Below, one piece after another: positions 23,508-27,652 of a stretch of 64,000 nt of DNA. The notes beneath the pieces were generated by a model. The model was given only the letters and a program-made list of their open reading frames with translations. It searched no databases and was not told where the DNA came from. Every line of letters starts with the position of its first letter. The first letter of the stretch is position 1. Location: the NCBI GenBank assembly GCA_035528575.1, contig DATKYK010000005.1:30381-94380 (forward strand), read 5' to 3'. Source of the DNA: Dehalococcoidia bacterium. Lineage in GTDB: Bacteria > Chloroflexota > Dehalococcoidia > E44-bin15. The translations under genes were made by a program, and so were the position numbers.

Positions 23508-24611
23508 ATGACGCTCAAGACCGAGCCAGTCACTATTAATATAGGGCCGCAGCACCCCTCAACCCATGGGGTATTTCGGATGAGGGTCACCTTCGATGGC
23601 GAGGTGATCGTCGATATGGAGCCCATCTTTGGCTACCTCCACCGCGGGATCGAGAAGCTCGCAGAGCATAAAACCTACACCCAGAATATCCCCTTTACCG
23701 ATAGGCTGGACTACCTGGCCTCGATGTCCAATAACTTTGCCTACGTGCTAGCGGTGGAGAAGCTTGCCGGTATCGAGGTCCCCGAGCGGGCAGAATATAT
23801 CAGAATAATAATGGCCGAGCTTATGCGGATTGCCAGTCACCTCATGGGAGTGGGATTTTTCTTCAACGACATGGGAGCCTTCATGACGCCGGTCCTTTAT
23901 ATGTTACGCGAGCGGGAAAAGATCCTAGACCTCTTTGAGATGGCCTGCGGGCAGCGCCTGACCTATAACTATATGCGCTTCGGCGGGGTTAGCCACGATA
24001 TCCCCCAGGAGTTTATACCGGCACTGAAGAGGTTTATCGGTGAGATGCCCCGCTATATCGATGAATACGACCAGCTTCTTGCCGAGAACGAGGTGGTACT
24101 TGCCCGCGCCAAGGGAGTGGGCATTCTACCAGCGGATAAGGCAATCAACGCTTCGGTCGCCGGCCCGGTGCTGCGTGCCAGCGGGGTAAAGTGGGACCTG
24201 CGCAAGGCAGATCCCTACTCTATCTATGACCGGTTCGATTTCGACATCCCTACCGGCACCAATGGCGATAACTACGACCGGTACCGGATTAAGATAGAGG
24301 AGATTAAGCAGAGCGTGCGCATTATCGAGCAGGCTATGGAGCAGATTCCCCAAGGGGAGGTACGCACCAGGGTATCGCCGACATTCAAGCCGCCTAAAGG
24401 GGAAGCCTACGGCAGGGTGGAGGGCCCCAAGGGAGAGCTGGGCTTTTATCTGGTGAGCGATGGCTCTGCTAAACCCTATCGCTTCAAGGTACGTGCCCCA
24501 ACACTACTAAACCTCACCGTACTCCGCGATATGATTATCGGACGGATGCTGGCAGATGCCATAATCACCTTTGGCAGCATTGACATCTGTATGGGCGAGG
24601 TGGATCGCTAG
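23508..24611 (+). CDS. nuoD: NADH-quinone oxidoreductase subunit D (49 kDa)
   Basis: 367 aa. [39 protein letters not shown]...ICMGEVDR matches Nqo4/NuoD end to end. Confidence 0.9.
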
Positions 24612-27600
24612 TGGGCGTTCTCGAGCAGTTCCAGGATTGGCTGCTGGGCTATATCCCCGGTTGGGCAGCATACCTCATACCCGTAGTCATCGCCTTCGCC
24701 ATCCTCTCCACCTTTATTCTGCTTGTGGTAATGGCCTTTATTTACATCGAGCGGAGAGGGATAGGAAGATTCCAGGTTCGCCAGGGGCCCAATCGAGCAG
24801 GCCCACAGGGCATCCTTCAACCGGTAGCAGATGCCATCAAGATACTGCTGAAGGAGGACATCATCCCCATCCTGGGGGACCGCTGGGTTCACTGGCTAGC
24901 CCCCATAATAATCTTCACTCCCGTATTAATGATCTTCGCTATCATACCCTGGGGCCACGGTGCTTTCATCGCCGACCTTAATATCGGCATACTTTACATA
25001 ATAGCGATATCCTCTCTGAGCGTAGTTGGTATTTTCATGGCGGGGTGGGGCTCAAGCAATAAATACTCCCTGCTTGGTGCCATGCGCGCTGTGGCCCAGA
25101 TGGTAAGCTATGAGATCCCGCTGGTGCTCTCCATCATTGGTGTGCTCATAATAACCGGCTCCATGTCCATGGTGAGTATCGTGGAGGCACAGACCGTGCC
25201 CTTCCTTCTGCTCCAACCCTTGGGGTTAATGATCTTCTTCCTGGCAGCAGCCGCAGAGATCAACCGCAGCCCCTTCGACCTCCTGGAGGCAGATTCGGAG
25301 ATTGTCGCCGGCTTCCATACGGAATACTCCGGAATGAAGTATGGCCTCATTATGCTCGGGGAATACGCTCACGCCTTCGCCGTTTCCGCTATCCTGACCA
25401 CCCTTTTCCTCGGTGGAGGCAGCGGGCCACTACTACCGGCGGTGTTGTGGTTCATGATTAAGGTGTTACTGGTTTTTGTCACCCTCGTATGGATACGGAG
25501 CACCCTGCCCCGGCTCAGGGTGGACCAACTGATGGAGTTTGCCTGGAAGTTCCTCTTCCCACTGGCATTGGCAAATATCTTTATCACCGCGATTGAGGTT
25601 ATCGTCTGGCCCTCGTTCCCCTGGTGGCTTATGTTCATTAATATCCCCGTCGCCATCATACTCATTATCCTATGGTCAAGTATGTTCAGGGTGTACGGGG
25701 AGAGGTTTAGCCTCAGGCATTTCGGCCGTGGCGTTGCCAAGGGGATGGCTCTTACCTTCAGGCATCTTTTACGCAGCCCCATCACGGTACAGTATCCTGA
25801 GCAGCGGCTCAATGTTTCCAGGCGGGCACGGGGCCAACGATTTATACGGGATGAGCGCAAACGGGCTCCATGCATTGCGGCGTGCCCTGCCAGCGTGGAT
25901 GTGCAGGGATATGTCTCTCTTATCACCCAGGGTCGATTTGTTGAAGCGGTTGAGCTCATCAGGCAAACCAATCCCTTCCCCGTCGTCTGCGGGCGGGTCT
26001 GCACCCACCCCTGCGAAACGGCCTGCAACCGGGGATCTATGGATAAAGCGGTCGCCATCCGTGAACTAAAGCGCTTCGTGACCGACTATGAAATGAGCGT
26101 AGGCAGGGGAGAGATAATGCCGTACCCCCGAACCAAAGACGAGCGGGTAGCGGTTATTGGCTCAGGGCCTGGAGGGTTGACCGCCGCCCGCGATCTGTCG
26201 AGGATGGGCTATGGGGTGACCGTCTTCGAAGCGCTCCCGGTCGCCGGCGGGATGATGTCGGTAGGTATTCCGGAGTATCGTTTGCCCAAAGCGGTGCTGC
26301 AAAAGGAGATCGATGGAATACTGCAGCTTGGTGTTGAACTGAAGCTGGAAAGCCCCCTAGGCAAAGATGGCCTGACACTGGAATCGCTCAAAGGACAAGG
26401 CTATAAAGCCATTATCATGTCCGTGGGTGCCCATGAAAGCATGAAACTGGACATCCCCGGCGAAGACATTGAGGGAGTATATCACGGGGTTTTTTTCCTC
26501 AGGGATGTACTCCTGGGCAAAAAGGTCAAGGTGGGAAATAGGGTCGCCATAGTTGGCGGAGGTAATGTGGCCATCGACGCTGCGCGAACCGCCCTCCGCC
26601 TCGGCGCCAAGGAGGTAACTATTGTTTACCGCAGGTCGCGGCAGGAGATGCCCGCCGCTGAGGAGGAGATAGAGGATGCGGAGGCCGAGGGGATCAATAT
26701 CCATTATCTGGCGGCGCCGGTCAGGGTTGTTGAAGATGGAGGGAAGCTGGCAGGCCTGGAGTGCATTCGGATGGAGCTGGGCGAACCCGATGCCAGCGGC
26801 AGAAGGCGCCCGGTACCCGTCGATGGGTCGGAATTTATACTCGACATCGACATGCTCATTCCCGCCATCGGTCAGGTCACTGACCTCTCCTGCTTGCCCC
26901 ATGATCACAAACTTAATATCACAAAGAGAGGGACATTCGAGGTCGACCCCCTCAGCATGGCTGCCAACATATCCGGCGTCTTCGCCTGCGGGGATGCCGT
27001 GAGCGGGCCCAAGACTGTGGTTGAGGCTATCGGGGCAGGAACCAAGGCTGCCCTCGCCGTCGACTGCTACCTTCGCGGCGAAAAATTCGGAGAGCTGGAG
27101 CCAGTGCTGCCACTAAAGGAGGTAGCTTTCGAGGATCTCGATATCAGCGATGTCGAGAGTAAAGAGAGGGCAAAGGTATCCCACTTACCGGTTAAGGATA
27201 GGATCCGCAGCTTCGAGGAGGTAGCCCTCGGCTTTTCAGAAGAGACGGCTATAGAGGAAGCCAACAGGTGCCTCAACTGTGGCTTCTGTGCCTGGTGCCG
27301 GCAGTGCGAAAATGCCTGTCCCTACGGGGTTATCAGGATAGTACCCCAGGAGACCCCGGAGGGTACGACCGGAGTGGAAAGGTTTGACATCGACCTCGGA
27401 GAATGTATATTCTGCGGCCTGTGCATCGAGGCATGTCCGGCACACCGACTATATCTATCGAGAATATACGAAGCATCCTGTTACCGGCGGGGAGACCTAT
27501 TACTGGATAAGGAGGGGCTAATACCATCCCCCGAAAAACAGCCGAGTGCCTATGCCCGTCCCGAGATTGAGCCTGCCCTGCCCAAACAGGCCCTTCTACT

Positions 27601-27652
27601 GGACAATAACCGGGTGGTTGAGGAGGAGAGAGAGAAGGAAAAGGTGACGTGA
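24611..27652 (+). CDS. nuoH/nuoI: Tripartite fusion: NuoH (aa 1-~330), an extra TM helix, the NuoI N-terminal segment, a GltD-like NAD(P)H/FAD oxidoreductase domain (~440 aa), the NuoI 2x[4Fe-4S] ferredoxin domain, and an acidic/basic tail
   Basis: The N-terminus matches NuoH through ...RSTLPRLRVDQLMEFAWKFLFPLALANI. WWLMFINIPVAIILIILWSSMF is an added TM segment. ALTFRHLLRSPITVQYPEQRLNVSRRARGQRFIRDERK aligns with the NuoI N-terminus. PCIAACPASVDVQGYVSLITQGRFVEAVELIRQTNPFPVVCGRVCTHPCETACN matches the GltD/DPD Fe-S N-domain. VAVIGSGPGGLTAARDL is the FAD Rossmann motif and VAIVGGGNVAIDAARTALRLGAKEVTIVYRR the NAD(P)H Rossmann motif. CAWCRQCENACP and CIFCGLCIEACP are the two NuoI CxxCxxCxxxCP motifs. 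No separate nuoI gene exists, and nuoJ overlaps the stop by 4 nt. Confidence 0.8.
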   Translation: MGVLEQFQDWLLGYIPGWAAYLIPVVIAFAILSTFILLVVMAFIYIERRGIGRFQVRQGPNRAGPQGILQPVADAIKILLKEDIIPILGDRWVHWLAPIIIFTPVLMIFAIIPWGHGAFIADLNIGILYIIAISSLSVVGIFMAGWGSSNKYSLLGAMRAVAQMVSYEIPLVLSIIGVLIITGSMSMVSIVEAQTVPFLLLQPLGLMIFFLAAAAEINRSPFDLLEADSEIVAGFHTEYSGMKYGLIMLGEYAHAFAVSAILTTLFLGGGSGPLLPAVLWFMIKVLLVFVTLVWIRSTLPRLRVDQLMEFAWKFLFPLALANIFITAIEVIVWPSFPWWLMFINIPVAIILIILWSSMFRVYGERFSLRHFGRGVAKGMALTFRHLLRSPITVQYPEQRLNVSRRARGQRFIRDERKRAPCIAACPASVDVQGYVSLITQGRFVEAVELIRQTNPFPVVCGRVCTHPCETACNRGSMDKAVAIRELKRFVTDYEMSVGRGEIMPYPRTKDERVAVIGSGPGGLTAARDLSRMGYGVTVFEALPVAGGMMSVGIPEYRLPKAVLQKEIDGILQLGVELKLESPLGKDGLTLESLKGQGYKAIIMSVGAHESMKLDIPGEDIEGVYHGVFFLRDVLLGKKVKVGNRVAIVGGGNVAIDAARTALRLGAKEVTIVYRRSRQEMPAAEEEIEDAEAEGINIHYLAAPVRVVEDGGKLAGLECIRMELGEPDASGRRRPVPVDGSEFILDIDMLIPAIGQVTDLSCLPHDHKLNITKRGTFEVDPLSMAANISGVFACGDAVSGPKTVVEAIGAGTKAALAVDCYLRGEKFGELEPVLPLKEVAFEDLDISDVESKERAKVSHLPVKDRIRSFEEVALGFSEETAIEEANRCLNCGFCAWCRQCENACPYGVIRIVPQETPEGTTGVERFDIDLGECIFCGLCIEACPAHRLYLSRIYEASCYRRGDLLLDKEGLIPSPEKQPSAYARPEIEPALPKQALLLDNNRVVEEEREKEKVT

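Follow-up and report, generated by a model that had tools for sequence, protein, structure and literature searches.

A fused nuoH/nuoI gene in a nuo operon

The stretch of DNA described here (64,000 nucleotides of contig DATKYK010000005.1, in the following called the window) comes from an uncultured subsurface Dehalococcoidia bacterium and carries a nuo operon for complex I in the order nuoABCD-[fusion ORF]-JKLM-NUDIX-N. The fusion open reading frame (ORF), located at 24611..27652 on the + strand, occupies the slot of nuoH and nuoI between nuoD and nuoJ. It starts with GTG, overlaps the stop codon of nuoD by one base and encodes 1013 aa without any internal stop. From its N- to its C-terminus, the protein consists of NuoH, a ninth transmembrane (TM) helix, the N-terminus of NuoI, a permuted GltD/NfnB-type cassette and, finally, the ferredoxin core and C-terminus of NuoI. 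Pfam finds NADHdh at aa 30–327 (E 1.5e-115), Fer4_20 at aa 417–496 (profile positions 28–110 of 113), Pyr_redox_2 at aa 512–810 (E 7e-35) and Fer4_7, a two-cluster ferredoxin, at aa 893–944. A preliminary description of this locus had read the ORF as NuoH with an extra TM helix, segments of NuoI and an inserted flavoprotein, and had proposed a scan for the corresponding domains. These Pfam matches, all four of the expected kinds, together with the motif positions given below, bear this reading out, and every motif quoted there was recovered at the same place in the fusion ORF.

Upstream of the fusion ORF, Pfam identifies nuoA (22082..22453; Oxidored_q4, E 2.8e-36), nuoB (22423..23040; Oxidored_q6), nuoC (23033..23497; Complex1_30kDa, E 4e-41) and nuoD (23508..24611; Complex1_49kDa, E 5.6e-98). 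Downstream follow nuoJ (27649..28143; Oxidored_q3), the start of which overlaps the stop of the fusion ORF, nuoK (28147..28452; Oxidored_q2), nuoL (28457..30379; Proton_antipo_N, Proton_antipo_M and NADH5_C), nuoM (30396..31877; Proton_antipo_M), a gene for a NUDIX hydrolase (31828..32292; NUDIX), which overlaps the end of nuoM, and nuoN (32303..33724; Proton_antipo_M), all of them on the + strand. All three antiporter-like subunits, L, M and N, are encoded in the operon. The translation of nuoB has kept the ligands of cluster N2, namely CCAFE (C79, C80), C145 and GC(175)PP, and no NiFe-binding cysteine motifs are present in that of nuoD. Therefore, the core is that of a genuine complex I and not of an Mbh/Ech-type hydrogenase. 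The operon holds no free-standing nuoI, and domains of NuoE, NuoF or NuoG (including PF01512 and PF01257) were found in none of the ORFs on which Pfam was run, the 55 longer ones, accounting for most of the 64-kb window. In this respect, too, the preliminary description was correct.

The NuoH domain (aa 1–337, TM1–TM8; 24611..25621, +; Pfam NADHdh) reaches 386 bits against PF00146 (cut-off 27) and, at 343.8, lies above the cut-off of 305 for the NCBIfam equivalog NF004741. It can be aligned to residues 12–323 of the 325 residues of Escherichia coli NuoH (7nyh_H, E 1.2e-80) and to residues 13–342 of the 365 residues of Thermus Nqo8, that is, into the C-terminal extension of the latter; a longer mycobacterial NuoH is mostly covered by the same alignment. 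The ninth TM helix follows at aa 338–359 (25622..25687, +; Kyte-Doolittle 2.28), and the 60 residues behind it contain 13 lysines and arginines. A helix at 339–358 also appears in a first model of the full-length protein, which is of low confidence (predicted local distance difference test, pLDDT, 38.8). The ninth helix is predicted to return the chain to the cytoplasmic side, as had been proposed. The further idea that it was acquired for the fusion has to be rejected, however: free-standing NuoH proteins of related Dehalococcoidia (369–378 aa; L084, L088, L089) already end with a homologous helix, and the helix is thus older than the fusion. In these relatives the stop codon of nuoH overlaps the start of nuoI or sits just upstream of it. 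Hence, a fusion of NuoH and NuoI would require little beyond the loss of a stop codon.

Behind this helix lies NuoI, its native sequence interrupted by 473 aa. The N-terminal segment (aa 380–417, ALTFRHLLRSPITVQYPEQRL...RDERK; 25748..25861, +) was assigned by alignment with NDUFS8/NuoI, whereas the ferredoxin core and C-terminal extension make up aa 891–1013 plus the stop codon (27281..27652, +; NCBIfam NuoI profiles, aa 893–976). Pfam, alignment and motif reading agree on cluster motif 1, CAWCRQCENACP, at aa 893–904 (27287..27322, +) and on cluster motif 2, CIFCGLCIEACP, at aa 932–943 (27404..27439, +). Both CxxCxxCxxxCP motifs are invariant in the 21 full-length members of the fusion family described below. 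When the cassette is deleted by joining aa 360–417 to aa 891–1013, the resulting NuoI is colinear with NDUFS8 residues 36–174 (E 5e-23), with a gap of two residues at the junction, and it spans positions 1–120 of the 121 positions of the TIGR01971 profile; against NF004538 it scores 100.1, below the cut-off of 135. This colinearity with a solved NuoI shows that the insert ends where cluster motif 1 begins, so that its point of entry is immediately in front of that motif's first cysteine. Thus, three details of the preliminary description hold: the N-terminal NuoI segment is present and aligns with the N-terminal residues of NDUFS8/NuoI in the cassette-deleted construct, the chain leaves NuoI exactly at its first cluster motif, and it returns to the NuoI fold with both motifs.

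An internal start, from which a separate NuoI with its cassette could be made, was considered as well. The only candidate, ATG 25745 (M379), matches the start region of the free-standing homologues described below, but it abuts the sole purine-rich stretch there, AAGGGG, without any spacer. Internal initiation therefore finds no support.

The inserted cassette and its solved relatives

The cassette comprises aa 418–890 (473 aa; 25862..27280, +) and was delimited by sequence matches in the PDB, Foldseek and NCBIfam. Judged by its motifs, it is predicted to bind flavin adenine dinucleotide (FAD), NAD(P)H and two [4Fe-4S] clusters. Six of the eight cysteines for these clusters lie at its N-terminal end (C421, C425, C460, C464, C468 and C472; 25871..26026, +; Pfam Fer4_20), within PCIAACP (aa 420–426) and CGRVCTHPCETAC (aa 460–472). 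The dinucleotide-binding motif for FAD, GSGPGG (aa 517–522; 26159..26176, +), has the invariant residues G517, G519, P520 and G522, and the NAD(P)H motif, equally invariant, is formed by GGGNVAID (aa 649–656) and VYRRSRQEMPA (aa 672–682; 26555..26656, +), with YRR at aa 673–675. ACGDA follows at aa 792–796. Cysteines 7 and 8 (C887, C890) are found in RCLNC at the very end of the cassette (aa 886–890; 27266..27280, +), a relocation recognised by the profile gap and the alignments.

These residues are under strict conservation. In the 21 full-length members, C421, C425, C464, C468, C472, C887 and C890 are invariant, as are GxGxxG (517–522), GGGNVAID, YRR, G794 and D795; C460 is conserved to at least 90% and C793 is nearly invariant. 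Most of the cofactor residues, including R886, C887 and C890, remain invariant over 79 sequences from three host contexts. The alignment called for in the preliminary description thus shows the residues for FAD and NAD(P)H binding to be in place.

The same description had taken the insert for a complete GltD-type module. This is right insofar as the motifs for Fe-S clusters, FAD and NAD(P)H and all eight cysteines are there; it has to be corrected with regard to topology and family. The N-terminal end of the cassette lacks what corresponds to positions 1–27 of the Fer4_20 profile, and the RCxxC pair is found after the flavin domains instead. By this alignment the cassette is a circularly permuted module of the GltD/NfnB type, as in StnC and NfnA. 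A circular permutation brings the ends of the cassette together, as is required for splicing it into a loop. The cut-offs of the NCBIfam GltD/gltA families are not reached (TIGR01316, 386 of 471.75; TIGR01318, 301 of 483; TIGR01317, 226 of 448) and no GltB partner is encoded in the scanned ORFs of the window. In contrast, NF009410 (PRK12771, 'NAD(P)-binding protein') is matched above its cut-off (543.8 versus 516), over aa 410–947 and profile positions 39–560 of 566.

The best sequence match in the PDB is NfnA of Caldicellulosiruptor (Csac; 9bov_A, E 2.5e-135), followed by NfnA of Thermococcus (T. sibiricus; 9n5u_A, E 7e-124) and StnC of Sporomusa ovata (8oh5_C, E 9e-112). All three alignments extend through the terminal RCLxCG. 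Weaker matches are NfnB (4ylf_B, E 3e-105), NfnI-L, GltD and DPD. In StnC, cryo-electron microscopy and mutagenesis have located NADPH and FAD between two Rossmann folds together with two [4Fe-4S] clusters; this domain hands single electrons to the neighbouring NuoG-like cluster chain and has lost the ability to bifurcate (PMC10482914). The NfnL-like domain of NfnA is its equivalent (PMC11829005). Residue R239 of StnC, which contacts FAD, corresponds to R557 of the window protein, and K170 of StnC corresponds to K487; both are invariant. Furthermore, VYRRSRQEMPA of the window matches YRR[S/T]..EMPA of the NADPH-dependent StnC and of the two NfnA proteins. Since this motif is common to NADPH-specific enzymes, the donor would be NADPH rather than NADH. 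One difference concerns C460. It is kept in the window protein, whereas StnC and NfnA have Ile or Leu there; hence both cassette clusters are predicted to be ligated entirely by cysteines.

An AlphaFold2 model of aa 360–1013, computed from the 79-sequence alignment, reached a pLDDT of 83.4 and a predicted TM-score of 0.78. Within it, the pLDDT exceeds 90 for the cassette and is mostly about 55–92 for the ferredoxin core of NuoI. Foldseek fits this model onto the structures of NfnA, StnC and T. sibiricus NfnA at query-normalised TM-scores of 0.68–0.70 over about 596–616 alignment columns, a span that includes the cassette and the Fe-S domain downstream of it; on NfnB the target-normalised TM-score (TMt) is 0.81. 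C890 of the cassette and C893 of NuoI are only three residues apart, therefore the clusters that they bind must be neighbours. This spacing and the superposition on StnC and NfnA are the grounds on which we suggest that the clusters of the cassette lie close to those of NuoI.

Occurrence of the fusion and origin of the cassette

A search among 5.8 billion proteins yielded about 24 clusters at 90% identity (P0001–P0024), which have the same domain set as the window protein and are 68–93% identical to it. Complete members have about 1004–1014 aa, and P0021–P0024 are truncated. They are drawn from assemblies of ENA, JGI, NCBI and Logan. Those at NCBI belong to metagenome-assembled genomes (MAGs) of Dehalococcoidia and to a metagenome from the subsurface, and 'NuoH' is their only name (e.g. 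TEU01952.1 and MCK5653662.1); the JGI name is 'NuoH/NADPH-dependent glutamate synthase beta subunit-like'. The gene order nuoABCD-[fusion]-JKLM-NUDIX-N recurs on the independent contigs L001–L003, L086 and L087 and, in part, on L004. The recurrence of one uninterrupted ORF in many independent Dehalococcoidia assemblies shows that the fusion is no assembly artefact. Both the intactness of the ORF outside this assembly and the wider existence of the NuoH-GltD-NuoI architecture, for which the preliminary description had suggested a survey, are hereby established. Genes nuoE, nuoF and nuoG, the mark of a 14-subunit complex, were found neither in the operon and the scanned ORFs of the window nor within 10 kb on either side of the fusion in the relatives examined.

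In addition to the fused form there is a family of free-standing NuoI proteins with an inserted cassette, here called NuoI::GltD (P0088, P0110, P0149–P0266; 613–643 aa). The best 120 matches contain more than 115 clusters, 53–100% identical to P0088, from MAGs of Dehalococcoidales, Dehalococcoidia and Chloroflexota. The fused form is thus the rarer one. Loci of the unfused type are L084 2359–4209, L088 10001–11881 and L089 10001–11893; their operons read nuoABCDH-[I::GltD]-JKLMN, and within 10 kb of those examined no nuoEFG was found. The NUDIX gene, kept in every window-type operon examined (L001–L003, L086, L087), is absent from the operons of L088 and L089. An origin of the window protein from this family was considered and rejected. 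In the free-standing proteins the cassette is inserted between NuoI motifs 1 and 2, in the window protein before motif 1, and their cassettes are only 48% identical to that of the window, compared to 68% for the HdrA type, and group with NuoF-GltD in a neighbour-joining tree without support values. This other cassette lineage points to an independent insertion.

A third arrangement occurs in Desulfobacterota (ORM2a, Deferrisomatales and others). There, a protein of about 650 aa combines the N3 [4Fe-4S] domain of NuoF (PF10589) with the cassette but is devoid of the flavin mononucleotide (FMN) domain. The operon order is nuoABCD-[NuoF N3+cassette]-G-HIJKLMN, that is, nuoE and nuoF are replaced and the NuoG gene is next to the new gene (L024 9497–14034 of Thermodesulfobacteriota ORM2a, CP113000.1; also L069 and L081). 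More than 120 clusters have this architecture (P0267–P0386). Together, the comparisons suggest at least three separate entries of the cassette into complex I: in the window type, from an HdrA-type host, in the free-standing NuoI::GltD and in the NuoF remnant. Of the comparative arguments for its function as an electron port, this threefold independent recruitment of one NADPH module is the strongest.

The possible source of the window cassette is indicated by its nearest relatives. A scan of a genome collection with peptide patterns specific for the cassette gave, among the matches listed, one window-type locus (L004), and HdrA as the host of most of the matches; full NuoF and NuoG/Fdh-like proteins of the StnC type are further hosts. 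In ANME-1, an NfnB-like insert of about 500 aa within the HdrA ferredoxin domain has been described (PMC9012536). The window cassette is 68% identical to that of HdrA::GltD proteins of about 900 aa and is adjacent to it in a neighbour-joining tree without support values. At the end of the cassette, the window protein reads RCLNCGFCAWCRQCENACP-YGVIRIV, the HdrA type RCLNCGICSWCRECEKVC and motif 1 of P0054 C..C..C..ACPHGVIRI. The window junction looks like a chimera of an HdrA-type junction and NuoI motif 1, which suggests recombination inside the motif. P0054 (L085 2007–4538) is the closest relative without a cassette, a NuoH–NuoI fusion of 558 aa in which about 30 aa are inserted between both NuoI motifs. 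Behind it come a NuoE-like gene and another ORF, which opens with a NuoE-like domain, in this single case an unusual position for genes of the N-module.

The cassette matches also include several other protein types. A TPP-enzyme-like N-terminal part, resembling 2-oxoacid:ferredoxin oxidoreductases but without confirmation by Pfam, is joined to the cassette and a ferredoxin in proteins of about 1130 aa (L042, L073). Proteins of about 700 aa have a Cys-rich FlpD/MvhD-like tail, likewise without Pfam confirmation (L053, L057, L063). In Desulfobacterota, cassette proteins of about 720–770 aa (one ORF has 836 aa) possess an unrecognised N-terminal domain of about 110 aa and a Cys-rich C-terminal tail (L034, L036, L039, L041, L056, L059, L060, L067, L078). 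StnC-like proteins of 1240–1290 aa, NuoG/Fdh-like and with the cassette inserted, are encoded in two MAGs of Deltaproteobacteria (L025 5898–9773, L031 9683–13405) by a divergent gene adjoining an 11-gene nuoA-N operon. Finally, just upstream of its nuoA, the contig of P0006 (L001; 1–1187, -) has a separate gene of the GltD cassette-FlpD type together with a four-subunit 2-oxoacid:ferredoxin oxidoreductase; the upstream region of the window differs.

Within the window, a gene for NAD kinase (33809..34624, +; Pfam NAD_kinase, NAD_kinase_C) directly follows nuoN and may be a functional link to the NADP(H) pool. The enzyme makes NADP+, and its gene forms a trio with those of a GNAT acetyltransferase (34621–35085) and a second NUDIX protein (35079–35624). 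This trio is kept in L001–L003 and L087 but not in L086; of four related contexts, three have NAD kinase behind nuoN. At a distance of 6.7 kb downstream of nuoN there is a quinone-dependent SdhABCD/Frd cluster, accompanied by genes of the tricarboxylic acid cycle. The whole central-carbon block (39797–53445, -) encodes a two-subunit fumarase, SdhABCD/fumarate reductase with two membrane anchors, malate dehydrogenase, an isocitrate/homoisocitrate-type dehydrogenase, a two-subunit hydratase of the aconitase family, a biotin carboxylase-type subunit, a carboxyltransferase and a citrate-lyase-beta-like aldolase, which implies quinone-linked metabolism beside the nuo operon. Upstream, a selenocysteine toolkit extends over 7620–14992, with SelA (7620–9032, -), a Se/S carrier-like protein (10328–10870), a SelD-like protein of the AIR-synthase family (12176–13138) and SelB (13142–14992); the tRNA-Sec (21312–21405, -; Rfam, 70.2 bits) is located in the gap of about 1.4 kb upstream of nuoA. 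Also upstream of the nuo operon are a caspase-domain (Peptidase_C14) protein (15296–16222, +) and a right-handed beta-helix protein of 607 aa that contains Chlamydia-PMP repeats (18852–20675, -).

Proposed electron path and comparison with known systems

From the conserved motifs and the structural model, we consider it probable that this operon encodes a proton-pumping complex I with an electron-input module inside a core subunit, which would take electrons from NADPH without NuoEFG. NADPH, or less likely NADH, would deliver a hydride to the FAD of the cassette. Single electrons would then pass through its two all-cysteine [4Fe-4S] clusters to the NuoI clusters N6a and N6b, from there to N2 in NuoB and finally to a membrane quinone, and protons would be translocated by NuoL, M, N, H, J, K and A. 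In principle, this path would be reversible. That the cassette is a functional NAD(P)(H) port at all is a likely assumption, and, once it is made, NADPH is clearly the favoured donor. In addition, the cassette would replace NuoEFG, and NADPH oxidation would be the more probable physiological direction. The preliminary description had likewise suggested that NAD(P)H feeds the quinone-reducing core through this one polypeptide; the intact ORF in independent assemblies, the invariant motifs, the NADPH-binding solved relatives, the superposition of the AlphaFold2 model and the colinear NuoI argue in favour of this suggestion.

Other readings of this path were considered. The GltD/NfnB superfamily includes NADH-using as well as NADPH-using members, and complex I usually oxidises NADH, so that the cassette might simply stand in for the NADH site of NuoF. 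We regard this as doubtful, because the YRR[S/T]..EMPA motif is shared with NADPH-dependent enzymes and the NAD kinase gene is adjacent. The direction of the electron flow may also be opposite: the proton-motive force would push quinol electrons, obtained by the oxidation of succinate or H2, to NADP+ and the complex would be a generator of NADPH for biosynthesis. NADPH is usually an anabolic carrier, the NAD kinase gene follows nuoN, an Sdh/Frd cluster is close by, and both complex I and cassettes of the NfnB/StnC type are reversible (PMC10482914). No feature of the sequence fixes the direction. StnC and NfnA(Bfu) have been described with a flow from NADPH into the cluster chain (PMC10482914, PMC11829005), and a routine spending of proton-motive force is improbable for energy-limited subsurface anaerobes; a net flow towards NADP+ is a serious alternative, though an unlikely one.

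Much less probable is a bifurcation as in NfnB, by which some electrons of NADPH would take the exergonic route via NuoI to the quinone and others would reduce a low-potential carrier such as ferredoxin in an endergonic step; the same holds for a confurcation, its reverse. The matches given above show the homology of the cassette with NfnB, the arginine R201 of NfnB (R239 of StnC) is kept as R557, and two bifurcation sites have been proposed for HdrA::NfnB fusions (PMC9012536). Yet the [4Fe-4S] pair is the single visible exit for electrons, the operon encodes no NfnA-like partner with [2Fe-2S] and FAD, both cassette clusters have four cysteines, in contrast to the Glu-ligated proximal cluster of NfnB, and StnC, its nearest solved counterpart of like permuted topology, no longer bifurcates (PMC10482914). 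If it did bifurcate, this would be the first membrane-bound, proton-translocating complex I with flavin-based electron bifurcation. One may finally suppose that the insertion is non-catalytic, or an assembly or frameshift artefact, and that the electrons come from ferredoxin, F420H2 or a NuoEFG encoded elsewhere in the genome. For 11-subunit complexes in Dehalococcoidia, the donor role has indeed been attributed to other modules, FpoF among them (PMC4959651), and a distant nuoEFG is conceivable. The same intact ORF in many independent assemblies and the acquisition of the cassette by complex I on at least three occasions leave very little room for this explanation, and the invariance of the ligands for FAD, NAD(P)H and clusters at an overall identity of 68–93% indicates selection on catalysis.

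Several points weigh against an NADPH-fed complex I without NuoEFG as proposed here. The absence of nuoEFG refers to the 64-kb window and to 10 kb on either side in the relatives, and a related deep-sea Chloroflexi genome has an 11-subunit nuo operon together with a separate nuoEFG operon (PMC5736913). The preference for NADPH over NADH is predicted from motif identity with NADPH enzymes. The cassette-deleted NuoI scores 103.1 bits against TIGR01971, just below the cut-off of 113.05. The full-length AlphaFold2 model, built from 21 close homologues, was unusable at its pLDDT of 38.8 and was replaced by that of aa 360–1013, in which the NuoI N-terminal segment is still of low confidence.

The electron donor is a question for the 11-subunit complexes I without NuoEFG of Dehalococcoidia and many other anaerobes, for which FpoF has been proposed as an ad hoc partner (PMC4959651). 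Here, a candidate site sits in NuoI itself, with NADPH as the predicted donor. If this is true, a respiratory complex I would couple the oxidation of NADPH directly to quinone reduction and proton pumping, and models of redox balance and energy yield of abundant subsurface bacteria would change. Current annotation hides the cassette, as the fusion is 'NuoH' at NCBI and the unfused form is an 'FAD-dependent oxidoreductase' or a 'formate dehydrogenase (NADP+) beta subunit'. In a survey of subunit composition such as that of 2025, which was based on hidden Markov models and lists only CD and BCD fusions among the complex I variants (PMC12361115), these operons would consequently count as being without an input module.

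Among the known systems, StnC of StnABC (8oh5) and NfnA of the Bfu-type NfnABC (9bov, 9n5u) are the best matches in sequence and fold. They contain the same permuted cassette, beginning with PCxxxCP and ending with RCLxCG, likewise spliced into an Fe-S protein related to a complex I subunit, where it binds NADPH, FAD and two [4Fe-4S] clusters and delivers single electrons to the clusters of its host. Their host is a soluble transhydrogenase subunit of the NuoG/Fdh type, whereas that of the window is NuoI, fused to the membrane subunit NuoH of a quinone-reducing pump. They have a Lys as cluster ligand, with Ile or Leu in place of the Cys that the window protein keeps at position 460, and their partners are NuoE/F-like bifurcating subunits, of which the operon and the scanned ORFs hold none. 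The nearest relatives of the cassette as such are in HdrA with an NfnB-like insert (ANME-1 HdrA9-11 and the 'HdrA-like polyferredoxin' of about 900–1480 aa, e.g. P0025). Here, too, the cassette is located in a ferredoxin domain with two [4Fe-4S] clusters and is followed by CxxCxxCxxxC (RCLNCGICSWCRECEKVC; RCLNCGFCAWCRQCENACP in the window), but HdrA is a soluble flavoprotein of heterodisulfide reductase without link to complex I or quinones.

With the canonical N-module of NuoE, NuoF and NuoG the fusion would share the role, that is, to turn a hydride into single electrons for the NuoI clusters. The means are different: NuoEFG use NADH, FMN in the NuoF fold, 2Fe-2S clusters and a chain of several clusters distributed over three subunits, whereas for the window protein the prediction is FAD, bound in a GltD fold of two Rossmann domains, with two clusters that share one chain with NuoI, and probably NADPH as donor. 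The free-standing NuoI::GltD proteins have the same operon position and predicted function as the fusion but are not joined to NuoH. In an Mbx-like operon of Thermotoga, a gltD-like flavoprotein is found in place of NuoI (Degli Esposti 2015, PMC4758237). This again combines an NAD(P)(H) flavoprotein of the GltD family with a membrane module related to complex I; however, it is a separate subunit of a hydrogenase-derived complex of the Mbx/Mrp type, for which electron flow from ferredoxin to NAD(P)+ was proposed, whereas in the window the flavoprotein is inserted within the NuoI of a genuine Nuo quinone reductase. FpoF/FqoF, which use F420H2, and ferredoxin docking on the cyanobacterial NDH-1 also feed NuoI-type clusters without NuoEFG, but with other donors, unrelated folds and separate subunits or soluble carriers.

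For a GltD/NfnB cassette inside NuoI, for the fusion of NuoH and NuoI and for the variant with the NuoF remnant, we found no description in the full-text literature, which does not include subscription-only papers. The parts and the plug-in principle are already known from StnC/NfnA, HdrA::NfnB and the gltD-like subunit of Thermotoga; the placement in NuoI of complex I would be new. One permuted cassette for NADPH, FAD and Fe-S clusters has apparently been plugged repeatedly into different Fe-S hosts, and into complex I in three ways.

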